Virus record (IMG/VR): IMGVR_UViG_3300028840_003967
Span: 1 to 64,000 of that record
Direction: 5' to 3' (one strand)
Length of the DNA: 64,000 bases
From: an uncultured virus (IMG/VR IMGVR_UViG_3300028840_003967)
Taxonomy: Duplodnaviria; Heunggongvirae; Uroviricota; Caudoviricetes
Positions 1 to 60,014 of the stretch are shown piece by piece. The position numbers and the translations under genes were made by a program. The notes under the pieces were generated by a model, which was not told the origin of the DNA, searched no databases, and worked only from the letters and a program-made list of their open reading frames with translations. Positions within the stretch are counted from its first letter, which is position 1. Every line of letters begins with the position of its first letter.

Positions 1-659
1 CGTTGGTTTGAAAACACCTTGTCTTTTTCGGAAAAGATTCCACTCTCCAATATCACCTTTATCGCATCTGGATGGCCGTCAGCGGGTTGGATGAAAACTT
101 CTCTCACAAAGACTTCTTCTTTCAGGATTTCCTCGACTTCCCTCATGTCCTGTTCCGTGCCGACAACGAACTTGAAATAGCAATTCGTCATATAACGGAC
201 CAATGTAGGAAGCGCACTGCGCCTACCGGAGCTAGAGAGTTTCGGAGAAATGATCCATGCGTCAATGCAAACGAAATGTTTCGGATCGCACTTGTCCAGA
301 AGTTCCCCGTTCGTTTCGATTGAAGTCCCGAACGCCGGTTCGATCTCTTTGCAGATTTGAACAATCTGTGGAAGGAAGATAGTAGGCTCACCGCCAGTGA
401 AAACAACATGGCGCTTGTGAAGAGGAAAAGACTTCAAAACAGAAATAACATACTCGACAGATAACGAAAGGTGTTTTGTTTCCGCCTGACTCGGTTTGAT
501 ATTTTCCGGTTTGTAGCCGCTATCGCACCAACTACATGTTCGATTGCATCCAAGAGTCCTCAGAAAAACAGAAGGAAGGCCAACTGTTGGACCTTCCCCG
601 GAAATCGTCTCATAAATTTCATGTACACCAATTTCTTTAGGAGTTCCTTGCCTCCGCAT
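1..659 (-). CDS. queE: 7-carboxy-7-deazaguanine synthase (radical SAM), runs off left edge; missing from ORF track
   Basis: Manual translation from ATG 659: MRRQGTPKEIGVHEIYETISGEGPTVGLPSVFLRTLGCNRTCSWCDSGY...VVFTGGEP...SIETNG...ISPK; CxxxCxxC and GGEP motifs. Confidence 0.92.
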   Translation of the reverse strand, partial: MRRQGTPKEIGVHEIYETISGEGPTVGLPSVFLRTLGCNRTCSWCDSGYKPENIKPSQAETKHLSLSVEYVISVLKSFPLHKRHVVFTGGEPTIFLPQIVQICKEIEPAFGTSIETNGELLDKCDPKHFVCIDAWIISPKLSSSGRRSALPTLVRYMTNCYFKFVVGTEQDMREVEEILKEEVFVREVFIQPADGHPDAIKVILESGIFSEKDKVFSNQ

Positions 660-1053
660 AAGATGTATTCGTTTCCCAAACGCGAAGGGAGTCCAGTCTT
701 GCGGATTCATGCTCGAAACACTCCTTCATCTCCGCGAACCAATGAAGCGCCAACACTTCAACCGTAGGGTCTTGATGGATTATGAACACGTGTTCCCTGA
801 AGCCGCCCTCAATGAGAACGCCCGCGAGAGGATCGTCTATTTTGAGAACGACTTTATGATCCCATCTCTCCACGACGTGTTTCAACTTTTTGAGTTCCGC
901 GAAGTCCACCACAAATCCGTTGTCGCCTATGTTGCCGTAGGCCGTCAACTCCACGCGGTAGTTGTGCCCGTGCAAGAAACGACACTTCCCTTCGTGCCGC
1001 ATCAACCTATGGGCGATAGAGAACTCGCCCAAAAATTTCGTTACCTTGACCAT
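637..1053 (-). CDS. queD: 6-carboxy-5,6,7,8-tetrahydropterin synthase
   Basis: AHRL..HEGKCRFLHGHNY, VVDF, WDHK, PTVE, VWET motifs. Confidence 0.95.
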   Translation of the reverse strand: MVKVTKFLGEFSIAHRLMRHEGKCRFLHGHNYRVELTAYGNIGDNGFVVDFAELKKLKHVVERWDHKVVLKIDDPLAGVLIEGGFREHVFIIHQDPTVEVLALHWFAEMKECFEHESARLDSLRVWETNTSYAEARNS

Positions 1054-2016: not shown

Positions 2017-2583
2017 TCATTTTATGTGCTCCAGGATTTCATCCTTGACTTGCAAACCCGCTTGCCCGAGCACGACGCAGACTTTGGTCGCCGCATGGAT
2101 GTCACCAGTTCCCGTGCATACACACGCATGGTGGGCCTTGGAGAGAACGCAAACGGCTTCAGGTTTGAGCCTTTCTTCAAGCTCTGCGGCGATTCTATGC
2201 GTGAACTCTTCTTGAAGAGTTCCGACCTTCGAGAAGAATTCAACCAACTGTGGAAGTTTCGAGAATCCGACGATGTGTTTTCCTGGTAAATAACCGATTC
2301 CGACTGTCCCATAGAACGGCACGAAGTGATGTTGGCAGATCGATACGAAACAGATGTCTCGCATGACAACGATGTCGTTCCCTCTTGATTTGAACAACTT
2401 GAAGTCGAAAGGTAATCGGTGAGGATAGCGATCATTGATCTTGTCCTTGTTCGCTGTCATCTGTTCAAGCATCTTGACGACACGCCGGGGAGTCTCCAGC
2501 GTTTCGTTCTTCAGCTTTATGCCTAGATGGTGGCACATCCGGGCATAGGCTTTTTCAGCCGATTTACGCTTTCTGGCGTTCAC
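2017..2583 (-). CDS. folE: GTP cyclohydrolase I
   Basis: ETPRRV, SICQHHFVPFYG, GFSKL, LQE, HAC Zn ligands. Confidence 0.93.
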   Translation of the reverse strand: MNARKRKSAEKAYARMCHHLGIKLKNETLETPRRVVKMLEQMTANKDKINDRYPHRLPFDFKLFKSRGNDIVVMRDICFVSICQHHFVPFYGTVGIGYLPGKHIVGFSKLPQLVEFFSKVGTLQEEFTHRIAAELEERLKPEAVCVLSKAHHACVCTGTGDIHAATKVCVVLGQAGLQVKDEILEHIK

Positions 2584-3265
2584 AGAACTCCTCCCAACCC
2601 TTCTTTCGGAGTAAGCAAGCTGGACATTTTCCGCATCCGTGTCCCCAACTGTGTTTGCCTAACCCTGTGTTATAGCAAGTCGCTGTTTCAGTCAAGATGG
2701 TTTCCAGAACGCCCAACTCATCCGCTGCTTCAAAGATGCGCGCCTTCGTCATGTTTATTAACGGCGTGAACAGGCGCACAGTGTTCTTAGGCAATCCCAA
2801 GGCGAAGTTGATAGCGTCTTCACACGCAGCAACAAACTCATAACGGCAATCAGGATAGCCGCTGGAATCCGCTTGGCACACGCCGCTGTAGATGTGCTCT
2901 ATCCCCCGGCTGACGGCCACTCCGGCAGCGATAGAGAAGAACACCATGTTCCGGCCAGGAACAAACGACGTGGGCAATCCCTTGAACCTCTTGCTTTCCT
3001 CGATCTTCTCAAAACTGTACCCTGTCAGAGCGGAATCGAGGAGTGCTCCGTAGTTCTTCAAATCAACGGTGTCGTGCTTGCGGACTTCGAAGATTTTCCC
3101 TATCCGCTTTGCTTGGAGCAGTTCCATCTCATGCCGCTGGCCGTAACAAAAAGACAGAGCATCCACGAACGGATACTTGAAGTTCCGTTTCATCAGCGCA
3201 AGACAGGTTGCCGAATCCTGTCCGCCGGAAAGAAGAATCAGTGCGCCTTTTTGTCCTGATTCCAT
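2564..3265 (-). CDS. queC: 7-cyano-7-deazaguanine synthase (canonical)
   Basis: SGGQDS PP-loop, YGQRH, VPGRN, GYPDC, TCY..CGKCPAC Zn site. Confidence 0.95.
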   Translation of the reverse strand: MESGQKGALILLSGGQDSATCLALMKRNFKYPFVDALSFCYGQRHEMELLQAKRIGKIFEVRKHDTVDLKNYGALLDSALTGYSFEKIEESKRFKGLPTSFVPGRNMVFFSIAAGVAVSRGIEHIYSGVCQADSSGYPDCRYEFVAACEDAINFALGLPKNTVRLFTPLINMTKARIFEAADELGVLETILTETATCYNTGLGKHSWGHGCGKCPACLLRKKGWEEFCERQKA

Positions 3266-3936
3266 TTCTTGTACACCTTCTGTGCAGAGGTTATCGCGGA
3301 AGCCCGAACCAAACATGCGAGGCACACTTCGCAACCTTTTGGATCGTAGTTGCAGGAATTCGTTTTTTCAAGATCGATGCCGAGACTAAGCGCGAGCAAA
3401 GCAACTTGATGCTTCTGGAATCCGCATTCAAGAAACGGCGCTCGTATCTCGGTGATTTCGTCTTTCGTGAAGCCGCCGACTTCCTGAAGTTCCCGATACG
3501 TGTCAAGGAAAGCGGAAGTGCGATCCGAATGCGGTTCCTCCTCTTCGTGATGGAAACCCACGAACAGGTCCATCTCTTCTATGCTGGCCAAACAAGCGCC
3601 CTGTGTGATGAGGAAAGTGTTCCTTCCGTTGATGTAGTCCTTGGCAATGGAACTGCGTCCAGGTTCTATCTTCTCGCCAAAGCGGAAAATCGGCCCGCCT
3701 TTGACTTCATCTTTCATCGGTATGTCAGCCCTGTGCCTCACCAAGAATCCTCTCCCGAGAACTCCTTGATGATACTCGACGTACTCTATGGACTTTTCTG
3801 TTGTCACTTGCCCGAAGTCAACGACCAAGTTGATGATCCGTTCTTCAGGGTTCACTCCGTACACAAAGGGGTTCTTTGCGATGGCATAGAACAGCGCGGT
3901 AGAATCTAGTCCTCCAGAAGCCAGGATCACGGGCAT
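3238..3936 (-). CDS. second, divergent QueC-family PP-loop ATPase
   Basis: SGGLDS, DFGQ, NGRN, SCNY..CEVCLAC retained; YPDC replaced by HSDR. Confidence 0.85.
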   Translation of the reverse strand: MPVILASGGLDSTALFYAIAKNPFVYGVNPEERIINLVVDFGQVTTEKSIEYVEYHQGVLGRGFLVRHRADIPMKDEVKGGPIFRFGEKIEPGRSSIAKDYINGRNTFLITQGACLASIEEMDLFVGFHHEEEEPHSDRTSAFLDTYRELQEVGGFTKDEITEIRAPFLECGFQKHQVALLALSLGIDLEKTNSCNYDPKGCEVCLACLVRASAITSAQKVYKKWNQDKKAH

Positions 3937-4325
3937 TTTCTTTCTCCTTCCGCTGTGCAACGTATCCTCACACCGCCGCGAGAGTTGAACGTGGTACTCA
4001 CACTCACAGTCAAAGGATCGATGGCTTTCAAGAAGTCATCTCGAATCCTTGCTGTGATGCTTTCCTGAAACGCCTTGAAGTTCCTGTAGCTCCCCAAGTA
4101 CAGCTTCAGCGACTTCGATTCACAGATGCTTTCGAAAGGCGTGTACTGTATGTCGATTGCCCCGAAGTCCGGTTGTCCCGTCACCGGACAGAGAGACGTG
4201 AACTCTTCGAAAGAAATGCAGATACTCGGCGTTGGATGCTTCACTTGGAAAGGAACGCCTACGAGCAAGGATGGCGAATATTCTTCTGGAAACGGAACCA
4301 CTTTGCCGAGCGGGATGTCTTCCAT
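3927..4325 (-). CDS. queF: preQ0 reductase, unimodular type
   Basis: EFTSLCPVTGQPDF and QueF motif ESKSLKLYL, C-terminal RGG. Confidence 0.93.
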   Translation of the reverse strand: MEDIPLGKVVPFPEEYSPSLLVGVPFQVKHPTPSICISFEEFTSLCPVTGQPDFGAIDIQYTPFESICESKSLKLYLGSYRNFKAFQESITARIRDDFLKAIDPLTVSVSTTFNSRGGVRIRCTAEGERKCP

Positions 4326-4350
4326 GGCCGTACCGTCCACTGCGGAGAGT

Positions 4351-4423: not shown

Positions 4424-4579
4424 TTACGGTCGCGGGGGACGCCTTCGCTTGCCAGCCTGCACGCCCAGGCGCTGTCTGCCACGGCCTGCCGCTGCACCCC
4501 CACGGCGACGGCCTGCACGAACGCCTCGACGCCCTTTGCGGCCTGCCGCTGCTGTTCCCCCCTTTCCTCCCCCTGGCAT
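4424..4579 (-). CDS. protamine-like Arg/Gly-rich 51-aa peptide
   Basis: GGAGG RBS, own promoter and terminator; MPGGGKGG...RKGRRGVRAGRRRGG..., no acidic residues. Confidence 0.7.
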   Translation of the reverse strand: MPGGGKGGTAAAGRKGRRGVRAGRRRGGAAAGRGRQRLGVQAGKRRRPPRP

Positions 4580-4630: not shown

Positions 4631-4659
4631 AGCCTAGTAGAATCCCGGCTTCCCGTCAA
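4631..4659 (-). promoter_or_regulatory. sigma70-like promoter
   Basis: TTGACG-N17-TAGGCT. Confidence 0.6.
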
Positions 4660-5120
4660 GCGGACGGCTTATCCGAACTTGCTTCTTGAGGGGTTATTTT
4701 ATGCACAGGACGCCAGTTTGCAACCCTGAAATTCTTGTGATTCTCAGGAACCACACTCACAAGGCGCAAAACTGAGCAATCTTTGATGATTTTTTCCTTC
4801 GTTTCCCGGTTCTCGACTACGACGCTCGTCCAGTAGGGGATACAGGCGACACGCAGCCTGGAACGCTTGGTGACGAAATCCCTGTTGATGGCCCTGCATG
4901 TGATGATCGCGCACTTGTACGCTTGGTGGCCCGCGTTCGCCCCGAGAAAGACGAACTCGATAGGGCGCACTCCCCGTGCCCACAGGTTGTAGGCGTCCAT
5001 CCCTATCTTGAAAACTTGGGTCGCTCCGCTGATCCTCACAGACCCCCGGTGGTAGCTGTACTCAGCCTTCTTCACCGAGCCGGTCTTCTCTTCTTTGATG
5101 TTCCCGTTTGCTTCCGGCAT
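4656..5120 (-). CDS. SpoVS-like (Alba-fold) protein
   Basis: VRIS...IEFVFLGANAGHQAYKCAII...CIP resembles SpoVS EIQAIGAGALNQAVKAVAI...CIP. Confidence 0.6.
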   Translation of the reverse strand: MPEANGNIKEEKTGSVKKAEYSYHRGSVRISGATQVFKIGMDAYNLWARGVRPIEFVFLGANAGHQAYKCAIITCRAINRDFVTKRSRLRVACIPYWTSVVVENRETKEKIIKDCSVLRLVSVVPENHKNFRVANWRPVHKITPQEASSDKPSA

Positions 5121-5476
5121 TGTTCCATCCTCGCTTTCGGCAGTAGGGCAGCAATGGTTTTGATGTCTCCCGGATCGATCAACACAAGGAACTGAGGGCA
5201 TCCCTTCTGTCTGTGTTGTCGCCGTTGGGCCAAGGCCACGATGAGAGGCTTACCCTCTTCCTGTGCCTTGGGAAGCTGCTCCTTCCACAGCTCCACAGCC
5301 GCGTGCTTGTCGCGGTACTTCGTTTCGATGTAGAAGTGAGGGCTACGGGAGTCTGATTGGGTGTCGTGGCCCGAGTTGCTACCAGACAGAGGAACGCGCT
5401 TGGTTCCGAAGAACGCCGCTACATCGGCTTCGACCTTCTTCCAGTGCTTCGATCTCTGCTTCGCTGTGCGGGCCAT
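5072..5476 (-). CDS. Holliday junction resolvase-like PD-(D/E)XK nuclease
   Basis: KVEADVA...RVPLSG...SD...YIETK...GKPLIV. Confidence 0.7.
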   Translation of the reverse strand: MARTAKQRSKHWKKVEADVAAFFGTKRVPLSGSNSGHDTQSDSRSPHFYIETKYRDKHAAVELWKEQLPKAQEEGKPLIVALAQRRQHRQKGCPQFLVLIDPGDIKTIAALLPKARMEQCRKQTGTSKKRRPAR

Positions 5477-5573: not shown

Positions 5574-6065
5574 TCAAGCTCGACTAGAGCGTTCATACTC
5601 GACACTCCTTCTGCTTTGATCGCGGCTCAACGCCTTGGATTTCCGGTCGTAGTTGTCCACTCGCGTTTCAAGGGCGATTTTCATCGCCTCAAGTTCCTCG
5701 CACCTACGGACCAACTTTTGAATCTTCGGATCAAGGTCCATCTCCGCATCCTGTTCGTACTTCTTTTTCCCTCCGCTTGCGAATCGAATCCTCGCCCTTG
5801 CCGTGCGCAAACTTCTTTGCGCACCGATCAACTGGATTCTCGTTTTGGCGAGATGATCGTTGGCATAGGCATACCACGCCACCATAGCCGTGTAAGCTCG
5901 TTGCAGCCTCTTGGGCGGCAGGCGTGTAGGGTCAATCGGCATTTGCGCCGTGCTGTCCTTCGGCTTGTCCGTATCGACGATACCTACAGCGCGAATGCGG
6001 CGCTCCGTTTCTTCGAGGATGGTCCTTTTCTTTTTGCTTTTCGTCCCTTTGCGTTTTTTAACCAT
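5574..6065 (-). CDS. helical coiled-coil protein, possibly UvsY-like recombination mediator
   Basis: Coiled-coil pattern, position in recombination module. Confidence 0.4.
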   Translation of the reverse strand: MVKKRKGTKSKKKRTILEETERRIRAVGIVDTDKPKDSTAQMPIDPTRLPPKRLQRAYTAMVAWYAYANDHLAKTRIQLIGAQRSLRTARARIRFASGGKKKYEQDAEMDLDPKIQKLVRRCEELEAMKIALETRVDNYDRKSKALSRDQSRRSVEYERSSRA

Positions 6066-6859
6066 TTCCTTCCCTTTCTCTCATCCCAACAAATGTTGGT
6101 GTAGAAACATCCCTTGCAAGGAAAACGGTGCACAGACTCCCCTTCCCTCTTCGGCAACTTCCGGTTGTCCACGTGGTCACGGAGATAATCCAAACGCTTC
6201 TTCCGTTTCCTTTCGTCGCTCTTGTTGAACTCGAAAAACGTCTCGCGCAACGTTTGATCGTTCTTGTTCTCGTAGATGAACACGGCACGATGAATCTTCA
6301 AGTGCTTCATGTACATGTGAATCTGCTGCTTGTACCCTTCCTTCCCGTAATGCCGTCCAAGGTTCTTGAAGCCGTAGTCATTGATGGATTTGAAATCGAC
6401 GATGTACTTCTTCCCCTTTAGACTCACTATGGCGTCACAGGTTCCTTGTTCATCGCCGACAGTGAAGGGAACTTCGATGTCATCTATCGTACAAAGGCCC
6501 ATTCGGACGAAGAGGACTTGCATTCGCAAGTGAAGCGAATCGCCCGTGGCAAAGATTCGCTGTGACTTGGCGATGTCCGCGATACCACCCATCGGAGGTT
6601 TGTTCTTGGGTGCGCGCATGGATTTGTAGACAGTCCTTCTAGCGCATCCCCCGATAGCGGAAGGATGATAATACTTGTCCCTGTAGTCTTTCTTCGCGGC
6701 CTTCCACTGCTTGAACTTGCGTTCGGCCAATGCCAGTTCGATCTTTGCTTCGGCACGCCGAATGTCAACGTCCGTTATTTCCCGGCGCATGAGGGCCATC
6801 TGTTCATCGTAAAGGAAGCGATCAATGACGTTGATGAACGAGACTTTCCTCTTCTTCAT
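5984..6859 (-). CDS. Cas4-like PD-(D/E)XK exonuclease
   Basis: HPSAIGGC, GDSLH, GTCD, VDFKS, QxxxYM, CKGC..IC Fe-S ligands. Confidence 0.85.
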   Translation of the reverse strand: MKKRKVSFINVIDRFLYDEQMALMRREITDVDIRRAEAKIELALAERKFKQWKAAKKDYRDKYYHPSAIGGCARRTVYKSMRAPKNKPPMGGIADIAKSQRIFATGDSLHLRMQVLFVRMGLCTIDDIEVPFTVGDEQGTCDAIVSLKGKKYIVDFKSINDYGFKNLGRHYGKEGYKQQIHMYMKHLKIHRAVFIYENKNDQTLRETFFEFNKSDERKRKKRLDYLRDHVDNRKLPKREGESVHRFPCKGCFYTNICWDERKGRKWLKNAKGRKAKRKGPSSKKRSAAFAL

Positions 6860-7286
6860 CTTGTTCACGTCTTTCCACAGGTTGCGAAGCATTCTTCTTT
6901 GACTCCCTGTATTTGTCGATCTGACCCTTAGCTTCTTTCAAACCAAGACCTGTTCTGGCACGGTACTTCTTGACGGCAGGAATGATTCCATCCTGAATGT
7001 GTTTATCGACCAGCTTCTTCTCTTCCTCGTTCAATTCTGGAAACGTACCAACACGAACGGCCTTGGTGATCTCCGGGTACGCTTGCCACACATGAGCCGC
7101 CCGAGTAGTGACCACGCGATGCTCCGTTCCGGGAGCGTAGGCGTCGATATACTTCTGAAGTGTTCTTTTCTTGTGCGCCGTCACAAGATCGACAGTTTCA
7201 TATTCGAAGCCTTTTCCTTTGATAGTTCGCAAAAGTCCGTAGTAAGTCCGCTTCGTCCTTGTACCAAACCCCATTGCGCTAGCCAT
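6822..7286 (-). CDS. protein with C-terminal ribosomal bL12 (L7/L12) CTD-like motif
   Basis: IPAVKKYRARTGLGLKEAKGQID. Confidence 0.7.
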   Translation of the reverse strand: MASAMGFGTRTKRTYYGLLRTIKGKGFEYETVDLVTAHKKRTLQKYIDAYAPGTEHRVVTTRAAHVWQAYPEITKAVRVGTFPELNEEEKKLVDKHIQDGIIPAVKKYRARTGLGLKEAKGQIDKYRESKKNASQPVERREQDEEEESLVHQRH

Positions 7287-7396: not shown

Positions 7397-7855
7397 CTAG
7401 TTACCCAATGTTTGTGCACAAAATGTACACAAATTAACCTTCTTGACGCAGCATCCATCACACACACGTTGCCCACACGAAGGGCATGTGCTCAATTCCC
7501 ATGGAGGTGTAGAAGAAATACAAATAGCACAAAAATGATCGTCATCATCTAACTCATCATCTAACTCATCATCGTCTTCAACTTCTGCGTTGGCTTTTTC
7601 AATACACTCATCACAATGCCCATCACACTCGTTGTCGCAGCCACAAACGGTGTCAAAACAATCAGAACAAATAGGCTTTTTCTCAGTTTCCATTTCAATG
7701 AAAAACACACAAAACGGACACGTATTCTGTCCGCACACACAACACTTACGGAGTTCTGTGCCCGCCCTTCCGCAAACACCGCATTTGCAACTATCGGGCA
7801 TTCGCTCTCCGGTTAATCCGTCTTCGATCATTCCGTGTCCCTTTCGCGTTCGCAC
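7397..7855 (-). CDS. multi-CxxC Zn-finger protein with acidic linker
   Basis: Many CxxC pairs, DDDELDDELDDDD; locally AT-rich. Confidence 0.6.
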   Translation of the reverse strand: MRTRKGHGMIEDGLTGERMPDSCKCGVCGRAGTELRKCCVCGQNTCPFCVFFIEMETEKKPICSDCFDTVCGCDNECDGHCDECIEKANAEVEDDDELDDELDDDDHFCAICISSTPPWELSTCPSCGQRVCDGCCVKKVNLCTFCAQTLGN

Positions 7856-8072
7856 TTCTTGAAACCGGACGAAGATTCGATGAAGCGTTTTTGCTTGTCG
7901 GCCCGCCCTGAATGTTGTGGTTCTTCTTGTCCCGCGTCACGGGCTTGACATGGCCAACAAGTTTTCCCGTCCCGCGTAACTTGTCCCGCATCTTTGCCAT
8001 GTTCGCCCATCTTCCGTCCTTCCAGTTCGATCCCGCCTTTCCCTTCTTGCTCCCTGAACCTTTGCCGCCCAC
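7791..8072 (-). CDS. basic small protein with HNH-like C-terminus
   Basis: AAGGAGG-GTG start; GHVKP...GG...N..SNLRPVSRSAN. Confidence 0.5.
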   Translation of the reverse strand: MGGKGSGSKKGKAGSNWKDGRWANMAKMRDKLRGTGKLVGHVKPVTRDKKNHNIQGGPTSKNASSNLRPVSRSANAKGTRNDRRRINRRANAR

Positions 8073-8074
8073 TG

Positions 8075-8651
8075 TTACGCCCTCCTTTTTCTCTGCTTCG
8101 TAAGCCAGCCCCAAGATCGACCAAGTTTGATGTCTGTAATCGTAACTTGATGAACACCAAACTTCCTAGAGATTTCAGTTGGGCCTTCACCTTGCGCTAA
8201 CAATCGACAGATACGGCGCACATCTCTTTCCTTCAACTTAGCCCCGTTTTGCTTCGATCCTTGAACATGCGTTCCGTGCCGCTTTTTGTCAGCTATGTTT
8301 TCTTTCTTAGTCCCCCAAACCAAATTGCCGATCCTGTTATTGGCCGGGTTCCCGTCCAGATGACGGCATTCCATGCCTTCAGGACACGGGCCGACGAAAG
8401 CAAGAAGCACAAGACGGCAAACCTTGAAGTTGAACGACTTGTTGCTAAGGCTAAACGTAATGATCGGTCTTCCGTTTTCCGAGATGTTGTGCGGGCGTAT
8501 CCTGGCCGTCTGGCCGATGAAGTGTCTAAAGCCACGACACGCCCCCTCTTGTTTTTCGCGCCCAAAAAGAACGCACACGTCCCTGGTCGGAGACTTCATA
8601 TCCTTCCCATCCGGGAATGGGCTTCCAGATTTCTCTCTTCCGCCCGCCCAT
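8075..8651 (-). pseudogene. NUMOD4-HNH homing endonuclease, frameshifted near 8540-8570
   Basis: ATG 8651 gives EIWKPIPGWEGYEVSDQGRVRS then TAG; other frame gives RLVLLAFVGPCPEGMECRHLDGNPANNRIGNL plus HTH. Confidence 0.8.
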
Positions 8652-9845: not shown

Positions 9846-10163
9846 TCATTCTCTAAGTCTCCTTTCTATCGCATCTCGGACAAAATCAAAAGTTGTCTCG
9901 GTCAAAATATAAACATTCACATCTTGAATTTGAATCTCCATGAGCGGTTCCAATCCTTCTTTAGCCGCCCGTTCAATGATCTTCTCGATGTCAGCCTTCT
10001 TCAAGATGATTTGTTTCTTGTCCGTCCTCTTACATTCCGCAAGCCACTGCGGACCTTTCACATCCCCTTTGTTGCGCCATCCGCATCCCGATCCCGGCTG
10101 GACACGCCCGTTCAACTTCTCAGCCAAGCGTTTCTCTTGTTGATCCGATTTCAGCCGCTTCAT
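9846..10163 (-). CDS. Holliday junction resolvase-like nuclease
   Basis: QEKRLA...PGSG...KGDV...LAECK. Confidence 0.75.
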   Translation of the reverse strand: MKRLKSDQQEKRLAEKLNGRVQPGSGCGWRNKGDVKGPQWLAECKRTDKKQIILKKADIEKIIERAAKEGLEPLMEIQIQDVNVYILTETTFDFVRDAIERRLRE

Positions 10164-11272
10164 AGCGCGAACGCCTTTCTGTTCTTCTTCTGCCGCTTTT
10201 TCGCTTTATCCCCGGTGCGCTTCAGTTGGAGTTTTCCTTTGTGTACCTTCATCACATCGTTGTACAAGTCCTGCAAGACGTACTTGTCCATGTAGATTTT
10301 CTTGCAGAACTTCTCTCTCCCGTTGGCCTTGATCCCCTGATAGGAGTAGGCGTGTCCCTTCTTTCGGACAATCCCGTATACCACGGCCATGGGAAGAAGG
10401 TCAAGCGCATTGTCGATGGTTCCCCCTTCCCGGTATCCATATGCCCGATTGTAGAAGTTGAAGAATCCCCGTTCGTTCGCGTTGCCGCCGGTCTTGTTCT
10501 TCACAACGACGAATCCCACCGTTGTTCCCACGGCCTGTTTCAACGTCTCCCCGCTTTCCTTGATTTCCTCATAGATGTAGCCTTTGCGGTACAGCTTCAC
10601 GCAGACAGATGCCGCGTGTTCAAGCGCCTTTCCCCCCGGTGCCGTTTCAGGATCGCCGAACATCACGCCGATTTGAACACGGACTTGATTCAACAAAAGG
10701 ATGGTCGATTTCGGCGTAGAAGAAAGCAAATCCTTCTTCAATCGCGGAATCAGCTTACGCAGCATCTTGGACACGAAACGCGGGTGCATCCCGACACTGC
10801 TTTTCTCCATCTTCTTCTCGACTTCGAAGTGCGGTGTGATAGCACCGATGGAATCGAAGATCACCAAGACTTGATCCCCCTCGTCCAACACATCGCAAAC
10901 GATGTCCACGGACTGTTCGCTTGTCGTCGGCGACACGAGAAGGAACTTGTTCGGATCGGCGTCGAGGAACTTCAACCACTTCACATCGAAAGCGTTCTCC
11001 ACATCGATGTAGACAACGTACCGCTTCTTAGGCTCTTTCTTGATGAACTTCGTGGCTCCGCAAATAGCGAGCGTGCTTTTATACGCGCTGTAGTGTCCTA
11101 TGACTTCGTTTATCCGGCCTTCCACGAAGCCCCCGCCTAGAGCAATATCAAGGGAATGGCTCCCTGTGCTGAAACGCTTGATCGTCAATCCAAGTGCATC
11201 GCTGGCACGGACGATTGTTCCCCTACCGTAGCGTTTATTTATGCGGTTCATCACAGTCTCTATCGACATCAC
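10160..11272 (-). CDS. recA: RecA/UvsX recombinase
   Basis: STGSHSLDIALGGG, P-loop GHYSAYKST, IDVEN, FDSIGA, NQVR, PGGKAL, VKNK. Confidence 0.95.
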   Translation of the reverse strand: MMSIETVMNRINKRYGRGTIVRASDALGLTIKRFSTGSHSLDIALGGGFVEGRINEVIGHYSAYKSTLAICGATKFIKKEPKKRYVVYIDVENAFDVKWLKFLDADPNKFLLVSPTTSEQSVDIVCDVLDEGDQVLVIFDSIGAITPHFEVEKKMEKSSVGMHPRFVSKMLRKLIPRLKKDLLSSTPKSTILLLNQVRVQIGVMFGDPETAPGGKALEHAASVCVKLYRKGYIYEEIKESGETLKQAVGTTVGFVVVKNKTGGNANERGFFNFYNRAYGYREGGTIDNALDLLPMAVVYGIVRKKGHAYSYQGIKANGREKFCKKIYMDKYVLQDLYNDVMKVHKGKLQLKRTGDKAKKRQKKNRKAFAL

Positions 11273-11677: not shown

Positions 11678-13585
11678 TTAGTTTTTCGCGGTAGCCCATG
11701 AGTCTCCGATCCCCACTGAAACCAGTAACGGAATCACAAGTTTCCTTGTCAGATTTGGCGGCGGTGTTTCCATGAGTCTTTGAACGACCTTCGCTGCTTC
11801 GTTCGCGTACTTCGCGGGAACTTCGAAGATCAATTCGTCGTGAATCTGCATAAGCATCCTGCACTTCATACTTTTCAACTCCTTGCTTGCATCGCAAAGG
11901 ATCATCGCGTGCTTCAGCCAATCGGCGGCGGAACTCTGAATCTGTGTGTTGATGCATTGCCTTTCAGCCGCCTTTCGTTCCCGGAATACTTCGCTGGAAA
12001 TGTTCCTGATCCTGAAAGGACGGCCACAGATGTTCTTGATGAAGCCCCTTTCCCGGCAGGATTCATAAAGCTGTTCCCGGTAGATCGGCACACCGTAATA
12101 GATGTTCCAATACTTGTCGATGATGTCTATCGCTTCTTCTTTCTCTATGAAGACGCCTTCAAGAATCAACTGTCTTTGGAGGGTGAACCACATTCCCTCG
12201 TATTGAAGAGCAAAATTGCAATTTTTAGCAATCATATAAGACCGATCGTATTTTAATTCCGCCTTAATCTCATCCTTCGTTATTCCTTTAGGCAGCAATC
12301 CTGTTTCCACTCCCGTTTGGATGTGAATCGATATTCCCTTCCGAAAACAACGGAGCATCATTTTATCCAAACTGAAGATTGCCATAAGACGCAATTCAAG
12401 TTGTTCCATATCCGCGACAATCAGTTTGTTTCCAGGTTTCGGCACGAAGCATTCGCGGATATGAAGGATGTCCGTTTTAGAGGGAATCTGTTGAAGATTC
12501 GGGTTGGACGACGAAGACCGGGCCGTGCGCGCTCCCACTTGCGAATAGGTAGTATGAATCCTGTTGTTATCGTCGCAGTAGAGAAAGAGTCCCGTATCCG
12601 GCCCGGTAAATCTACGTAATGAGAGATAGGCGTTGTAGTTGACAATCTGTTTCACCAACGGATGTTCATCCAGCAAATACGCCAAGCAAACCTTGTCAAC
12701 TTTCGGCCTGCCTGTGGGTGTCTTCTCCACAGGTTCCAATCCCAATTTTCCGAAAAGAAACTTTCCTAGCTGTATCTTGGAATTGAGATTGAATTCCTTC
12801 CCGTTCTTTTGATAGACTTTGGCCGCACATTTGTCCATCTTATCTGCCAAAAGACGATCTATCCTCTTGATCCCTTTCGGATTCAGTCTGATTCCCCGGC
12901 GTTCCATGCGAATCACACCTGCGAGGCTTTCCATTTCCATCTCGAAAAACTTTCGGCGCGTTCCTTTCAACAGCATGTTGCGAACGCCGTCAACGGTCCT
13001 GGCTTTGTACCCACGCTCATATGCGTCATAAAGTTTCCACGTGGAGATAGCATCGTTACAGGCATAGGGAACAATTTCATCGATGTTCTTCATGTCCACA
13101 CTGGACGTTTTTCTAAGCCGCATTCCGATAAGAACAGCGCGTTCCTTGAGCGCATTAGGTATTCTCTCGTCCCAACAGTGTCCCGCAATCATCGTGCAAT
13201 AGATGGAGCGAAGATCGAACTTCACGCCGTGGTTCATAACCATGTTGATGTCGTAGTTGGCATGATGCATTACCTTGGTGAGTCTTCTGTCCGCGAAGAA
13301 AGGTTCCAGCTTCTTCATAACGTACTGTGTGTCGAGATACGCCGGATCGAAGCTGGATAGAGGGATTCCCCATGCACGATTCTTTCGCGCGATGGATATG
13401 AACATCACACGTCCACGGTCAATAACCAACCCCTCTTTCTTAAAAGTCTTCTTTCCGCCCGGAGCATATGTCTCCGTGTCGAAAGCAAAAGCCCGCCAGA
13501 ACGGATTCTTGCGCTTGCTGACTTCCTCAAGATATTCACACAGAAGACGCAAGTCCTTCTTCGTCTTGACAGTCTTTATCTTCAT
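11678..13585 (-). CDS. polA: DNA polymerase family A (3'-5' exonuclease + polymerase)
   Basis: DTET, RSSSSNPNLQQIP, DMEQLELR, AKNCNF, NTQIQSSAAD, QIHDEL. Confidence 0.95.
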   Translation of the reverse strand: MKIKTVKTKKDLRLLCEYLEEVSKRKNPFWRAFAFDTETYAPGGKKTFKKEGLVIDRGRVMFISIARKNRAWGIPLSSFDPAYLDTQYVMKKLEPFFADRRLTKVMHHANYDINMVMNHGVKFDLRSIYCTMIAGHCWDERIPNALKERAVLIGMRLRKTSSVDMKNIDEIVPYACNDAISTWKLYDAYERGYKARTVDGVRNMLLKGTRRKFFEMEMESLAGVIRMERRGIRLNPKGIKRIDRLLADKMDKCAAKVYQKNGKEFNLNSKIQLGKFLFGKLGLEPVEKTPTGRPKVDKVCLAYLLDEHPLVKQIVNYNAYLSLRRFTGPDTGLFLYCDDNNRIHTTYSQVGARTARSSSSNPNLQQIPSKTDILHIRECFVPKPGNKLIVADMEQLELRLMAIFSLDKMMLRCFRKGISIHIQTGVETGLLPKGITKDEIKAELKYDRSYMIAKNCNFALQYEGMWFTLQRQLILEGVFIEKEEAIDIIDKYWNIYYGVPIYREQLYESCRERGFIKNICGRPFRIRNISSEVFRERKAAERQCINTQIQSSAADWLKHAMILCDASKELKSMKCRMLMQIHDELIFEVPAKYANEAAKVVQRLMETPPPNLTRKLVIPLLVSVGIGDSWATAKN

Positions 13586-19104: not shown

Positions 19105-19779
19105 CTATCCCAACGGCAGCTTCCACCGGATTGTCGTTTTCTTGTGCTTGAAGTTCACGATCACTTTCCTCATCGCCTTCCAGAAGGCTTCCCACTCGTC
19201 TTCTCTTCCGCGATTGTACATGATGGCGGCAGGATGAAGGGACTTCACAAAGCTAACGCCGCCGATCTTCAGATTCGCGGGAATGTGAGTCAGCGCAAAA
19301 ACGCTTTCTGTCGCGCTGTTCCCTAGAAGAATCACGAGTCGAGGACGCGCGGCCCTCAGGATGCTTTGAAGCCGTGGCCTGCAATTCTCCAACTCTTTCG
19401 ACGTGGGTCGTCTGTTCTTCACTCGGTTGAAGTCGTTGCACGGGCGGCATCCGAGCGCATTAGTTATAAAGCAGTTCGAGTTCTTTCCCTTGTACCGGAG
19501 TTTGGCTCTTCGCATCGCGTTGTCGAGATTTTCTCCACACTCCCCGACAAACGGGACGCCTTCCTCGTCTTCCACTCTCCCCGGCGCTTCGCCAACCAAG
19601 ACGATGCCGCTATCCAGTTTTCCTTTCCCCCAAACCATGTTGGTCCGGTAAGCGGAAAACTCGCATTTCATACAACGACGCCACTTGTTTTGAACATCAC
19701 ACAACTTCTCAAAAGATGATTTCTTCTCGTATTGAATTGAAGACAGACAGCCAATCCCCTTCAGGGTACTCGTAGACAT
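19105..19779 (-). CDS. uracil-DNA glycosylase, family 4 (Fe-S)
   Basis: CMKC, VGEAPG..E...PFVG, NALGCRP, ENC, HPAA. Confidence 0.92.
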   Translation of the reverse strand: MSTSTLKGIGCLSSIQYEKKSSFEKLCDVQNKWRRCMKCEFSAYRTNMVWGKGKLDSGIVLVGEAPGRVEDEEGVPFVGECGENLDNAMRRAKLRYKGKNSNCFITNALGCRPCNDFNRVKNRRPTSKELENCRPRLQSILRAARPRLVILLGNSATESVFALTHIPANLKIGGVSFVKSLHPAAIMYNRGREDEWEAFWKAMRKVIVNFKHKKTTIRWKLPLG

Positions 19780-49391: not shown

Positions 49392-49595
49392 CTTAGCCCT
49401 CTTGCGTCCAGCGGCAGCCATCTTGGCCATCTTCTTTGCGCCGAACTTTTTCCGGCCTATGACAGCGGCCAAAGCCTTTGGGTCTTCAATCCCGTCTTCC
49501 TGTCTTCCCAAGGATCGTTGAAGCCGTTGAAAACGTTTCCCGGTTCCCAACTTGGGCAGCTTCTTTTTCTGTCCACGTCCGCCACGCTGTGCCAT
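49389..49595 (-). CDS. small basic protein between terminase and portal
   Basis: LGTGKRF..DPKALAAVIGRKKFG. Confidence 0.65.
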   Translation of the reverse strand: MAQRGGRGQKKKLPKLGTGKRFQRLQRSLGRQEDGIEDPKALAAVIGRKKFGAKKMAKMAAAGRKRAK

Positions 49596-52363
49596 TACGC
49601 TATTACCCCCGCTCCTACCATGAAGTTCTGTTGAACTTCGATTTCGCCCGTGTCTGCCGGTTCCTGCGCGCCGTAGGCGGCAAGCATGAGAGAAACAGGG
49701 TAGTCGTCATGCGCTCCCGGTTCGTCTGGATGCTCGCACACCATGTAGTTGTTCTTGTACAACTTTCTCAAGTCCAACATCTCTCCCACGAAGCGCCTGA
49801 AGTGTCTTGACTTTCTCGCCTTCTCTCCGGCAGGGAAGGAGAGTCTACCCGACATGAGATCGGAATGCAATATCTTAAAACCATCCGACTTCGAAGCCGG
49901 GGTGAACTTCACTCCCTGCACTTCGACAAATCCCATTTCAGGCGTTCCATCCGCCCCCTTCCCGCGATCAAACTCGCTGTAGTACACGGTGAACTTGTCA
50001 AGTCCCCATTCCCCCACACCTGTTGCATCGAGAGTGATCTTCCTCAGTCCTTTGAAATTGGAGAGGAAGTTCACAATCTCGTGGAATTGGTGCTCGTAGT
50101 TGTCGCCGAGAAGCATGTGCCAAGCAACGACACGCTTGTTGTAGGCGATCCAATGGAAACTCCCTTCAGGCGTGTCAACCCATTCATCAGCGACGGGAGT
50201 TCTCCAATCCACGTCCATTACGGTAATCACACTTGGATCGTGGATTTTTCCGAAGTCAATCCCGGCGATCTGAGTTGTCACACGAGAAGATCGGTGCCAA
50301 ATCTCGTGATAGCCGCCGTGCGTCTTAGCGATTGCGGGCGTCATAAGCTGCTTGTCCGTGATGAACTGTCCACGCTCAAGCAACCATTCGCAGCAATAGC
50401 TAAGACGGAACTCATCGCTGTCTTCACCAAGGCGAACTTTTTCTTTCTTGATGTAGTCCCGATACATGGAGTTGTACTTTTGACAAACAAGATAGTCGTA
50501 TCGGTAGTGGTTCTTCGCTTCGCCTTGCGCGTACAAACGCTGATTGGACTTGATCGACGTGTAGAAATCAGACTTCTCCGTCGAACAAGTTCCGATCTTC
50601 ACAATGACGCCGTTGTACGCGGCAACCATGGGATGAAGGCTGTTACCTGTTACGATTCCATTAGCAATGACAAAATGCCGTTCATCTGGAACAGTCACGC
50701 AGTATGTGGGTTTCTTTCCGATATGTCTGACGGATTTAACACTAACAAACTGTATGTCTTCAGGATAAAACTGACTTCTACTCCGCCCTCTTTTTCCTTG
50801 AATAGTGCGGATACCCGCTTCAAGAGCGTCTTGTTTTGGCCCTAAGTTAAACTGCTTATGAAATTCACGCACATCTTCAACAGACTTTATATGCAGTCGG
50901 TACATATAGGTGCCTAGACGTTCTTTTATTCCCGGCAAATTCCCTGTGCTTTCCACGAAACCTTCGAACTTAGCACATTGAATGCCGAAGTGTAACAAAG
51001 TTTTCCGAAGGCCGTCTACAAGATACTCTGAACAGTTGGAAAATGAAACAACAGGTTTCACAGTCGGATTTTCTATACTGCCGTCAGCTATAATCAACCC
51101 GGAAGCAAGTCCGCGCAGAAATTCTAAGCTCCAAGGAAGATTGGGTATACGCTTGTTCTCACGCTTTGCCCCCCAAACGCCGATTTTTTTCAGCCATTCT
51201 GTCAACTTATTAGAGCCTTTCTTGTTTCCAGGCGAAGTAAGCCCACATTCAAGCATTCCACTAGATTGCTCGTTATAGACTACAGGACGCACGCCGAATT
51301 CATGCGGACATATACGGTCAAGTAGTTTCTTTACAGAAGGCTCAACAATTATTTGCGGCTTATCGCCAGTGAAACATCCGTCACCAAGAAGCAAGCCAAG
51401 CAAGAATCCTCGATCAAAGTTCCCTAAGACACCTGCTGCATTATTCAATCGTGTAGGAACAGCCATTTGCCAGCCGGGCTGGATTTCGTAAGTCAAGGCT
51501 TCGAAAGGAACCCTCCGAGTTCTGCTGCGCACAAAATGCCGGTGATTGGCCGTAACGTCTAAGTATCTTCCTCCTGCTAATGTCACACGATACACGGGTT
51601 GCACACCATTATCATGGTACTCAATATCACGAGACTCAAAAAAGCCAGAAGGAGTCAACACAGGCAGTTTCTTTTTGACAACTTCTTCCACAGGAACTTC
51701 GATTCCTCCAGAAGTAATGAAAAGCGTGCCTTCAGCAAAACACTTCCTCACCTTCAGCGTCCCGATGTCTTGCGCCTCATCAAGAATCAGGATGTGGTAC
51801 GTGTCGCCTTCGATGTGTGACTGTTCCGAAGCCGACTGAGAACGAATCCGGCTTCCATTCGAAAGACGAGTCTTGTTGGCGTTGCCGATGTCAAGGGCAA
51901 CGTTCAATTCGGCGGCTACTTCCTTCGTGGTGTCCGTTTCGAGCGTGTCACGAAGGCGACTGTAAACGATGTCAGCCTGTTCCTGTTTCGGCGCGTAGAT
52001 GCCGACAACGACACCGTACTTGTAGCCGCGATAGTTGCCTTGCTCGTCGGTACAGTTCAAGCGCCAATCGTCTTCGAAGATTTTCATTCTCGCAAGAAGC
52101 GGAAGAATCAAGCAGCACGCGGCGAGAATGTCCGCAATCAACTGAGACTTGCCGGACTGCCTAGCCCAAAGCGCGGTAAGCATGTCGCCGTCATGGAGAA
52201 GAACGGCTTCCACAAAACGATAGCCGAACTCCTTCTGATACTTGAAGTGCCTCTTCTGAGAAAGGATTTCGGCAAGACGGAGAATACGCAAAACAAGACT
52301 ATCCAACGGCACAGTCGGTTGACTGGTTTCCCGCGTGCAGACACGCGGTGCCATGGGTTCCAT
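49595..52363 (-). CDS. terminase large subunit containing an intein
   Basis: ARQSGKS, ILDEAQ, GIDFG, DATGVG, HDDY. Confidence 0.95.
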   Translation of the reverse strand: MEPMAPRVCTRETSQPTVPLDSLVLRILRLAEILSQKRHFKYQKEFGYRFVEAVLLHDGDMLTALWARQSGKSQLIADILAACCLILPLLARMKIFEDDWRLNCTDEQGNYRGYKYGVVVGIYAPKQEQADIVYSRLRDTLETDTTKEVAAELNVALDIGNANKTRLSNGSRIRSQSASEQSHIEGDTYHILILDEAQDIGTLKVRKCFAEGTLFITSGGIEVPVEEVVKKKLPVLTPSGFFESRDIEYHDNGVQPVYRVTLAGGRYLDVTANHRHFVRSRTRRVPFEALTYEIQPGWQMAVPTRLNNAAGVLGNFDRGFLLGLLLGDGCFTGDKPQIIVEPSVKKLLDRICPHEFGVRPVVYNEQSSGMLECGLTSPGNKKGSNKLTEWLKKIGVWGAKRENKRIPNLPWSLEFLRGLASGLIIADGSIENPTVKPVVSFSNCSEYLVDGLRKTLLHFGIQCAKFEGFVESTGNLPGIKERLGTYMYRLHIKSVEDVREFHKQFNLGPKQDALEAGIRTIQGKRGRSRSQFYPEDIQFVSVKSVRHIGKKPTYCVTVPDERHFVIANGIVTGNSLHPMVAAYNGVIVKIGTCSTEKSDFYTSIKSNQRLYAQGEAKNHYRYDYLVCQKYNSMYRDYIKKEKVRLGEDSDEFRLSYCCEWLLERGQFITDKQLMTPAIAKTHGGYHEIWHRSSRVTTQIAGIDFGKIHDPSVITVMDVDWRTPVADEWVDTPEGSFHWIAYNKRVVAWHMLLGDNYEHQFHEIVNFLSNFKGLRKITLDATGVGEWGLDKFTVYYSEFDRGKGADGTPEMGFVEVQGVKFTPASKSDGFKILHSDLMSGRLSFPAGEKARKSRHFRRFVGEMLDLRKLYKNNYMVCEHPDEPGAHDDYPVSLMLAAYGAQEPADTGEIEVQQNFMVGAGVIA
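50642..51742 (-). mobile_element. intein with LAGLIDADG homing endonuclease (367 aa)
   Basis: K|CFAEGT N-terminus, TANHRH block B, LLGLLLGDG and SGLIIADG, IANGIVTGN|S C-terminus; lower GC. Confidence 0.93.
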
Positions 52364-52371
52364 AAGACTGT

Positions 52372-52758
52372 TCACGGATTCCGCGTCTCCAGTTCCTTCT
52401 GAATGACTTTCACGTCTATCTGCATCTGTTGCTGGCGCGTGTCCATCTTTGTGTTCCACGCCTTCTGTTCTTCCATGTGCCGCTCGATTCTCTTGTACGC
52501 TTTCTCGGTGATCTCCTTGTTGTGCTCGTTATCTTTCTGCAAGTCCTTGATGTTGCCGTGGTTTTCCCAACTCCGCTTGTTGACCGGCAAAAGGCGCTCT
52601 TCGTTTCTCTGAATGCCTTCTTTGTTCTCTTTCACATCCCGCTGCATCTGAAGAAACGTGTAGTAGAATCCGATGATCGCGGCGCATAGCGCGAGCACGA
52701 ACTTAATCAATTCAAATCCATGCTTCGACGCATGTTTCTTCAGCGTTGAAGTGTTCAT
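52372..52758 (-). CDS. single-TM + coiled-coil protein (holin/XhlA-like?)
   Basis: LIKFVLALCAAIIGFYYTFL then heptads. Confidence 0.5.
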   Translation of the reverse strand: MNTSTLKKHASKHGFELIKFVLALCAAIIGFYYTFLQMQRDVKENKEGIQRNEERLLPVNKRSWENHGNIKDLQKDNEHNKEITEKAYKRIERHMEEQKAWNTKMDTRQQQMQIDVKVIQKELETRNP

Positions 52759-57894: not shown

Positions 57895-58113
57895 TTACGC
57901 TTCCGTCCCGGCCGCCTCGCCCGGGGCCTTCCGGACGATCGCGCCGTCCCGCGTGACGCGGTCGCCTTCGCCCAGGCCGTACTTCGCGGCGATCAGTTCG
58001 CGCAAGAGTCCCACGCGTTCCGCCGCGTGCCGCGCGTCGCGTTCCGCGGCCCCTTGCGCGTCCAAGGCCGCCGCCAGCCGCGCCAGGTCCTTTTCCTCCA
58101 CCCGCTCCGCCAT
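57895..58113 (-). CDS. small coiled-coil protein (high-GC cassette)
   Basis: ATG follows repeated leader. Confidence 0.5.
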   Translation of the reverse strand: MAERVEEKDLARLAAALDAQGAAERDARHAAERVGLLRELIAAKYGLGEGDRVTRDGAIVRKAPGEAAGTEA

Positions 58114-58115
58114 GG

Positions 58116-58565
58116 TTCGGCTCCTGGCTCTTGGCTCCTGGCTCTTAGTTGTGGCTGTCAATCCGCAATCCGCATTCCCCAGCGGGCCGCTACCGAACGG
58201 CGTCCAACGACGCGCCGATCTCCTCGTCGACCGCCGCCCGCGCCGCGTTCAGCGCTTCCAGGCGCGCGGTCAGTTCGGCTTGCTCGGCCACGGCGTCGGT
58301 CAACAGCGCTTCCCGCGCCCGCTCCAGCGCCCGGATCGCGTCGGAGAGAAGCATCTCATGCAGCCGCGCCTTGGCCTCGGCCTTGGAGACCGCGCCGCTC
58401 GCGATGTCCGCGGCCAGGTCCGCTTCGCGCCGCGCGGGGTCGATTCCCACGCTGACTTGCACCTTCCCGTCCGTCGCCGTCTTCACTTCCACGCTCATGG
58501 TCTTCGGCTCCTGGCTCTTGGCTCCTGGCTCTTAGTTGTGGCTGTCAATCCGCAATCCGCATTCC
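58116..58565. repeat. 63-bp identical direct repeat (58116-58178 and 58503-58565)
   Basis: TTCGGCTCCTGGCTCTTGGCTCCTGGCTCTTAGTTGTGGCTGTCAATCCGCAATCCGCATTCC. Confidence 0.95.
58190..58498 (-). CDS. small coiled-coil protein (high-GC cassette), possible fibre chaperone
   Basis: ATG follows repeated leader. Confidence 0.5.
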   Translation of the reverse strand: MSVEVKTATDGKVQVSVGIDPARREADLAADIASGAVSKAEAKARLHEMLLSDAIRALERAREALLTDAVAEQAELTARLEALNAARAAVDEEIGASLDAVR

Positions 58566-58580
58566 TCAATCCGCAGTCGT

Positions 58581-59957: not shown

Positions 59958-59979
59958 GGTAAGACTCCTAAACGAAGAC

Positions 59980-60014
59980 TAGGGATGGGGGAGATAATCA
60001 CTCCCCCATCCCTT
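59980..60014 (-). terminator. GC-rich hairpin between fibre genes
   Basis: AGGGATGGGGGAG-TGATTAT-CTCCCCCATCCCT; weak U-tract. Confidence 0.5.

Follow-up and report, generated by a model that had tools for sequence, protein, structure and literature searches.

Canonical QueC, the 7-cyano-7-deazaguanine synthase (TIGR00364, EC 6.3.4.20; PF06508 cluster 1 in the survey of Libby et al. 2026; PDB 3BL5, 2PG3), makes the nitrile base preQ0, and in the Escherichia coli enzyme Y35, R99, Y131 and Y189 are described as essential for that synthesis (PMC13329287). The same domain recurs in enzymes with other products. Cap9 of type IV CBASS (a system of anti-phage signalling based on cyclic oligonucleotides; PDB 9NTO chain B) is described by the motifs H(x)4YxDCxxxF and RN (PMC13329287), and its D117 is reported to hydrogen-bond the deazaguanine, with Y115 and R86 stacking on either side of the base (bioRxiv 10.1101/2025.04.06.647259). 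QatC belongs to the QatABCD system (PDB 9Y01, 9Y02), Gat-QueC of phage 9g and its relatives serves dG+ synthesis, and QueC* of Campylobacter phages has been proposed as a 7-amido-7-deazaguanine (ADG) synthase standing in for QueC (PMC10516641). From another enzyme family, CmoY, an AsnB-type AMP-forming ligase, is reported to join a DNA-borne carboxylate to glycine in Synechococcus phage S-B43 (PMC12783734). We analysed 64,000 nucleotides of DNA from an uncultured Caudoviricetes virus (hereafter the window), the first 64 kb of the 75.8-kb IMG/VR virus record IMGVR_UViG_3300028840_003967, which has an estimated completeness of 79%. At 3238-3936 the window holds a genuine paralogue of QueC, conserved and non-canonical, within a preQ1 pathway that is complete.

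The gene is held by an open reading frame (ORF) on the minus strand at 3238..3960, which gives 240 amino acids from its first codon. A Shine–Dalgarno sequence, GGAAGGAG, precedes the ATG at 3936, and the library-search matches of all relatives begin at query residue 9 or later (that is, at least 9) of the 240-residue ORF. This ATG is most likely the true start, giving a protein of 232 amino acids at 3238-3936, as an earlier note on this DNA had delimited the gene. That note had also placed it in tandem with queC and overlapping queF, which is confirmed: the stop codon of QueF (TGA 3929-3927) overlaps the QueC-like start by 10 nucleotides, and the probable start of canonical QueC (ATG 3265, Shine–Dalgarno GAAGGTG) overlaps its 3′ end by 28 nucleotides. 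The protein matches PF06508 with 78.8 bits (cut-off 22 bits), falls below the TIGR00364 equivalog cut-off (51 versus 150.3 bits) and is 23% identical to the neighbouring canonical QueC.

We compared the motifs of the two neighbours in a MAFFT alignment of 162 sequences. The QueC-like protein has SGGLDS where canonical QueC has SGGQDS, FGQVT for YGQRH (Tyr to Phe, His to Thr), INGRN for VPGRN with the Arg kept, and PHSDR for GYPDC (Tyr to His, Cys to Arg, Asp kept). At the zinc site SCN(Y) stands against TCY, with the Tyr after the first zinc Cys shifted by one position, and CEVCLAC against CGKCPAC; the zinc cysteines are C195, C202, C205 and C208, in C-x6-C instead of C-x8-C spacing. The alignment thus reproduces the substitutions listed in the earlier note (FGQVT and PHSDR, with SGGxDS, GRN and the Cys site kept), and SGGxDS and the four cysteines are conserved through an alignment of 18 family members. 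What is shared with canonical QueC is the Rossmann-type PP-loop fold, SGGxDS and the four-Cys zinc site, together with the RN pair, the Asp of YPDC and a location in a que cluster; what sets the QueC-like protein apart is the replacement of three motif residues (the His of YxQxH and, in YPDC, both Tyr and Cys), an additional loop ahead of the Asp and its being encoded in addition to QueC. The columns of E. coli Y35, R99, Y131 and Y189 hold Phe, Arg, His and Asn. Because residues essential for preQ0 synthesis are absent, a different deazaguanine chemistry can fairly be inferred, and in this respect, as in recognizing a real non-canonical paralogue, the earlier reading stands.

An exhaustive phmmer search of 1.84 billion representative proteins with the window protein (P0001) returned 262 matches at E ≤ 1e-3. 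Three lie at E ≤ 1e-30: the query itself, P0002 (47% identity) and P0009 (40%). Between the window and L005, the record of a distant phage, the QueC-like proteins are 38.6% identical, canonical QueC 41.4% and QueF 37.8%; the values for RecA, FolE and PolA are 33%, 29% and 28.5%, respectively. Judged from these sequence comparisons, the gene is under selection, its conservation across distant phages matching that of the canonical enzymes of the pathway. Nor is it, by the same evidence, a decaying duplicate: the relatives at 47% and 40%, from two other lineages, keep the same neighbourhood of QueF, QueC-like and QueC.

We modelled the protein with AlphaFold2 from an 18-row alignment (predicted local distance difference test 92.2, predicted template-modelling score 0.91). 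The best structural match of the model is Cap9 (VIA Z 19.9, root mean square deviation 2.3 Å over 178 residues; Foldseek E 6e-10), tied with QueC 3BL5 (the two QueC values are 19.3 and 18.9), followed by QatC at 15.8 and, as the next family, LarE at about 13. The pocket Asp (D138) is invariant in all relatives. The Tyr equivalent to Cap9 Y115 is lost, and the equivalent of R86 is Arg in the window protein and P0002 and Trp in P0009. A guanine-type base pocket probably persists with changed walls, because the Asp is kept, the Tyr is lost and the Arg is a Trp in one close relative.

The protein was next compared with the described families. In the comparison with Cap9, the C-terminal half aligns to the family profile (E 1.9e-11). 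However, Cap9 has about 185 amino acids and keeps the stacking residues of Y-x-D-C and RN, whereas the QueC-like protein has 232, no Tyr or Cys around D138, and is phage-encoded inside a biosynthetic cluster. The PADLOC Cap9 model PDLC00911 gives it 54.9 bits, compared with 48.3-88.1 for three phage canonical QueCs and up to 135 for library proteins, and no CD-NTase or Cap10 family was found among the window ORFs scanned with Pfam (11 + 47). It is not clearly a Cap9. QatC likewise retains the PP-loop and zinc site with remodelled substrate motifs, but it has about 400 amino acids, N- and C-terminal extensions and a motif set of its own, and its structural match is only Z 15.8. We rejected an assignment to QatC: the window protein has no such extensions and no NF041925 match at E ≤ 0.01, qatA, qatB and qatD are absent beside the gene, and the PADLOC QatC model (PDLC02214) matches one of the 18 family members, which is not the window protein. 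The best tblastn matches among cultured phages are Gat-QueCs (24% identity, E 2e-5), also phage QueC-type domains that yield a product other than preQ0. This candidate was rejected as well, as the protein is a single QueC domain (residues 11-225 of the 240-residue ORF) with no GATase domain, in agreement with the alignment to 9g; moreover, the 9g domain keeps YPD and RN, and Gat-QueC replaces QueC whereas the QueC-like protein accompanies it. No Campylobacter phage was among the 24 tblastn matches at E ≤ 1e-3, a search in which the CP220-type QueC* sequence was not compared directly.

The cluster lies at the left end of the window, nearly all of whose genes are on the minus strand. In order of transcription, and followed by two features from elsewhere in the phage that are considered below, it reads:

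4424..4579, minus strand: small Arg/Gly-rich ORF of 51 amino acids (MPGGGKGG...), a candidate gene with no Pfam or PHROG match
3927..4340, minus strand: unimodular QueF (preQ0 reductase), TIGR03139 116.5 bits (cut-off 86.9), PF14489 88 bits
3238..3936, minus strand: QueC-like PP-loop/Zn protein, 232 amino acids, with the PF06508 and TIGR00364 scores given above
2564..3265, minus strand: canonical QueC (preQ0 synthase), about 233 amino acids from ATG 3265, PF06508 217.8 bits, TIGR00364 202.4 bits; carries YGQRH, VPGRN, GYPDC and TCY
2017..2583, minus strand: FolE (GTP cyclohydrolase I), PF01227 134.5 bits
1058..1879, minus strand: two ORFs inside the cluster (65 amino acids, Cys-rich; 206 amino acids), no Pfam or PHROG family above threshold
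637..1053, minus strand: QueD (CPH4 synthase), PF01242 104.9 bits
3..710, minus strand: putative QueE, an open-ended ORF cut by the start of the record
7791-8072, read from 8072 to 7791: ORF of 93 amino acids (MGGKGSGS...), AAGGAGG followed by a GTG start, no Pfam or PHROG match
Sibling contig G002:C1:3159-4442 (L019 838-2121), minus strand: DpdA of the window phage, phrog_887 141.6 bits

QueE was assigned as probable from its position, the CxxxCxxC-type N terminus of a radical S-adenosylmethionine (SAM) enzyme in its translation and similarity to a radical-SAM ORF of L005; a full-length version (271 amino acids) is present in a sibling contig (L003:13251-14066). The QueF translation shows the Cys in SLCPVTGQPDF as well as ESKSLKLY, both of which we take to be QueF motifs. 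The window QueF (3927-4340) has F-Q-E where the L005 QueF (10695-11132) has F-H-E, the His of which is catalytic in bacterial QueF. An Rfam search of the window returned no family, preQ1 riboswitches included.

Four contexts of the gene could be read: the window, L009, L005 and Vibrio phage vB_VcorM_GR7B. L009 is a 1,022-nucleotide metagenome contig with the last residues of QueF, a QueC-like gene 47% identical to that of the window (TGATG overlap) and canonical QueC (ATGA overlap). L005 (40%) has the order QueC, an OCD/mu-crystallin-like gene, QueC-like, QueF, an Arg/Gly-rich ORF, a terminator-like hairpin, FolE and QueE. In GR7B (L004, MT366760.1 94554-103109), a more distant cousin from group I (described below), GR7B_00117, follows canonical QueC (GR7B_00118) and a DUF5591/ArcS2-like gene, and beyond it lie three genes (340, 380 and 697 amino acids), a lysine-2,3-aminomutase-like radical SAM gene and a GNAT gene; an archaeosine-type or further modified base in this cultured phage is possible. 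As far as it was accessible, the text supplement of Cui 2023 does not mention GR7B. From these contexts, the constant partners are canonical QueC (4 of 4) and a preQ0-consuming enzyme, which is QueF three times and ArcS2-like once. The QueC-like gene overlaps or abuts QueF in all three close relatives, in both gene orders.

The L005 locus has peculiarities of its own. Its QueE (11970-13139) has 389 amino acids and an insert with a weak intein-splicing match (PF14890, E 0.0017). A SpoVS-like gene lies just upstream of its que cluster (7961-8317; PF04232, 71 bits; phrog_35646); the window ORF 4656-5201 was considered as its counterpart and dropped, as the two have no detectable relation.

The likely destination of the base was sought through DpdA. 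Searches of three virus records with PF01702 (TGT) and PF20314 (DUF6610) found nothing, which is uninformative, since the validated DpdA of 9g also has no PF01702 match (E ≤ 1). Used as a query, 9g DpdA finds a 427-residue ORF in a sibling contig of the window phage (26% identity to 9g DpdA), the DpdA listed above, which is encoded on the same strand as QueE, about 15 kb further on, in sequence that the present record does not include. It also finds a 631-residue ORF in the L005 record, with 190.8 bits against phrog_887 (9g DpdA itself scores 331.5 bits). DpdA is therefore present in both phages with long flanks, and since both carry it, the cluster most likely feeds DNA modification. A 336-residue ORF after QueE in L005 was rejected as DpdA, being an acidic low-complexity protein with no match in an Atlas search.

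We tentatively propose, as the leading candidate but with less than even confidence, that the QueC-like protein is an ATP-dependent, AMP-forming ligase: it would activate the C7 carboxylate or amide of a 7-deazaguanine, and its product would be not preQ0 but another base that ends up in DNA. On this view, it would be an active ATP-pyrophosphatase (PP-loop) enzyme of the QueC fold, with a structural zinc site and a rebuilt substrate pocket, and it would not duplicate the canonical QueC that is always encoded alongside. It would most likely adenylate the carboxylate (or amide oxygen) of 7-carboxy-7-deazaguanine (CDG), supplied by QueE, or of ADG, with the base either still free or already inserted into DNA by DpdA; DpdA2 of VH7D is reported to be able to insert CDG (PMC10516641). 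The activated group would then pass to a nucleophile other than that of QueC, giving an N-substituted 7-carboxamide or an amidine instead of the nitrile preQ0, and this second derivative would be placed in phage DNA alongside or on top of preQ1. The scheme follows Cap9 and QatC by analogy, with one adenylation, then amine attack and no dehydration; amide ligation that stops after one step, as in Cap9, seems the likeliest chemistry for the QueC-like protein. CmoY offers a further analogy, being a phage AMP-forming enzyme that makes an amide via a base-borne carboxylate as envisaged here, although within the ATP-pyrophosphatase superfamily its branch is a different one, and its substrate base is 5-carboxymethylcytosine.

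Three rival explanations were considered. The protein could be a redundant or specialized isozyme or a non-catalytic partner, that is, an ADG-only synthase, a condition-specific QueC or a subunit pairing with QueC, an account that we consider doubtful. It would suit the common fold, the same ATP and zinc motifs and the constant adjacency of canonical QueC, and QueC* provides a precedent as a proposed ADG synthase (PMC10516641). However, the residues needed for preQ0 synthesis are replaced, the gene has been retained next to an intact QueC in lineages whose copies are 40-47% identical, the tblastn matches were free of the Campylobacter phages in which QueC* was proposed, and the conserved PP-loop speaks against a purely structural role. 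Alternatively, the enzyme could act after QueF, with the aminomethyl group of preQ1 or dPreQ1 as the nucleophile for an ATP-activated acid, to give an N-acyl-preQ1. The phage enzymes DpdM (methyl) and DpdN (formyl) are reported to decorate the preQ1 amine in a parallel manner (PMC10516641), and the overlap with or proximity to QueF in every close relative points the same way. We nevertheless regard such a step as unlikely, as the characterized QueC, Cap9 and QatC all adenylate the deazaguanine carboxylate and not a second acid, and the GR7B cousin works without QueF.

A third account, which we rate as quite unlikely, is protein or peptide deazaguanylation as in Cap9 and QatC, in which CDG would be joined to an N-terminal amine, the prime candidate acceptor being the small Arg/Gly-rich protein. 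It draws on the structural tie of Cap9 and QueC at the top of the matches (Z 19.9 versus 19.3) and on the report that QatC, with a remodelled pocket, still conjugates CDG (PMC13329287). The earlier note had drawn attention to two small basic ORFs near the cluster, and one of them gained interest. The ORF at 4579-4424 has an AGGAGG Shine–Dalgarno sequence 5-10 nucleotides before its ATG and an R+G fraction of 0.47, the highest of 700 window ORFs, a value equalled by an out-of-frame ORF from a GC-rich stretch. Its L005 counterpart, directly after QueF, has 45 amino acids (MGTGGERP...), ranks first of 225 ORFs in R+G, and has its own Shine–Dalgarno sequence (GGAGGG) and a hairpin with a T-run behind it. 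The two peptides are alike in position, size (51 and 45 amino acids), composition and Gly-rich N terminus (MPGGG, MGTGG) but have no alignable sequence. That the R+G-richest ORF adjoins QueF in both flanked phages is suggestive of protein deazaguanylation, not proof of it. The second ORF, at 7791-8072, lies 4 kb away with no link to the cluster, and this part of the claim fell away; it has a strong Shine–Dalgarno sequence and a Gly/Lys-rich N terminus, MGGKGSGSKKGK, and a possible HNH-like reading of it is supported by neither Pfam nor PHROG. Deazaguanylation is further weakened by the absence of the Cap9 signature YxDC, by a PADLOC Cap9 score within the ordinary QueC range (48-88 bits), by the missing QatC model match and by the window peptide itself, which would begin with Pro after removal of Met. 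GR7B has no such Arg/Gly-rich ORF, the top R+G fraction among its 134 ORFs being 0.30. In a more far-reaching version, which we think very improbable, the QueC-like protein would cap the Gly-rich N terminus of a protamine-like Arg/Gly peptide with CDG, and DpdA might swap the peptide-bearing base into DNA. If true, this would be covalent peptide–DNA decoration, or at least a nucleobase-tagged DNA-binding peptide, with Cap9/QatC-type chemistry used for the ends of the phage.

We examined how widely the non-canonical motif class extends. Motif classes were assigned among the top 150 matches and six references, with seven rows of fewer than 180 or more than 300 amino acids dropped, giving 155 rows. 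The aromatic-x-Asp signature of QueC and Cap9 is present in 94 rows and absent in 61. In a FastTree phylogeny these 61 split into two groups: group I (33 rows, support 86), and group II (23 rows), in which YGQ and RN are lost too. In a second tree of 177 rows, 31 group-I rows form a starred set (Shimodaira–Hasegawa-like support 95) that contains P0001. Group I is characterized by the lack of an aromatic residue two positions before the invariant Asp, by SGGxDS, by SC(x)5-7CxxCxxC and by a position apart from canonical QueC, and P0001 has all of these traits. The group-I clusters, about 31-33 in number, were seen only in phage or metagenome DNA.

Close relatives are few. In a pattern scan of 185,579 species genomes, neither the close subfamily nor the A6 clade was represented, and viral-contig searches with P0002, P0011, P0013, P0010 and P0075 gave no further close relatives. 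With alignment A4, the viral contigs returned two known phages only, the genome contigs none, and the metagenome contigs the same phage and L009 with no new lineage, six canonical QueCs being discarded. In tblastn searches of cultured phages, P0021 and P0017 had no match and P0022 weak QueC matches only. When the genome contigs were searched with the A6 clade, 79 loci were returned, none of them above 31% identity or counted as a member of the clade. A regular expression sorts 57 of these into the canonical aromatic-x-D type and leaves 22 of other types. Sixteen of the 22 belong to a separate cellular QueC-like family (loci within L023-L083, from Bacteroidota, Acidobacteriota and others) that forms its own clade (100*) and has the motifs YGQHC, LYxPYRN, NSNHAKEIDCS and SCQ...PCGACPNC.

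Some results weigh against the ligase proposal and the family on which it is based. A free IQ-TREE quick search (75 rows) does not recover group I as one split (3 changes), and group I had been delimited with knowledge of the first tree; the tree with group I constrained to one clade is, however, 54.9 log-likelihood units (lnL) better than the free search (approximately unbiased test, p-AU 0.94). Forcing the three close QueC-like proteins together with three phage canonical QueCs cost 48.2 lnL (p-AU 0.053), so that the gene is less likely to have arisen by duplication of the phage QueC, an origin that is not formally rejected. In P0009 the arginine of RN is lost, a residue that E. coli QueC cannot do without, and either the mechanism of P0009 differs or that copy is impaired. 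Only three close lineages are known, two of them with the same order, so the adjacency may be inherited and not selected. In the close subfamily QueF adjoins the gene in 3 of 3 cases, an arrangement more easily reconciled with a step after preQ1 than with one at the level of CDG. As GR7B lacks QueF, a link to preQ1 does not hold for the wider family.

Outside the cluster, the window encodes a family A DNA polymerase, a primase, a DnaB-type helicase, RecA, a Cas4-like nuclease and a uracil-DNA glycosylase (UDG), as well as portal, capsid and tail genes. The UDG superfamily gene (19105-19779; 99 bits to PF03167) is surrounded by replication genes, in a phage whose guanines are probably modified. 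A 954-residue ORF at 49595-52459 contains an intein bearing a homing endonuclease domain of the LAGLIDADG type (PF14528, PF14890), and its host gene probably encodes the large terminase or some other packaging protein. Local G+C peaks at 0.645, compared with about 0.50, at 58001-60000, over a 458-residue ORF without a family. A basic tail tipped by FAL or FAF closes unrelated proteins, including RecA and the Cas4-like nuclease (...KAFAL, ...AAFAL, ...SSFAF, ...SPFAF; window 10160-11272 and 5984-6892, L003 18181-19005, L019 2990-3445).

The PF06508 survey of Libby et al. 2026, in its accessible text, covers the ten largest clusters and describes no phage group that accompanies QueC (PMC13329287), and the accessible text of Hutinet et al. 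2019 has no mention of a second QueC (PMC6884629). Our literature search found no paper on such a QueC paralogue; preprint supplements, which were outside that search, may bear on the point. Eight 7-deazaguanine bases are known in phage DNA. To our knowledge, every extra cluster enzyme so far (Gat-QueC, ArcS2, QueF, DpdM, DpdN, DpdL) has meant a new base. The DNA chemistry of the window phage probably has one step more than any described so far. A conserved, phage-only QueC branch that always accompanies a normal QueC suggests a ninth derivative, or else a first case of nucleobase–protein conjugation on the phage side. In both cases DNA hypermodification would gain a ligation step driven by ATP, and liquid chromatography–mass spectrometry of virion DNA a defined target, with Vibrio phage GR7B as the cultured entry point for the wider family.

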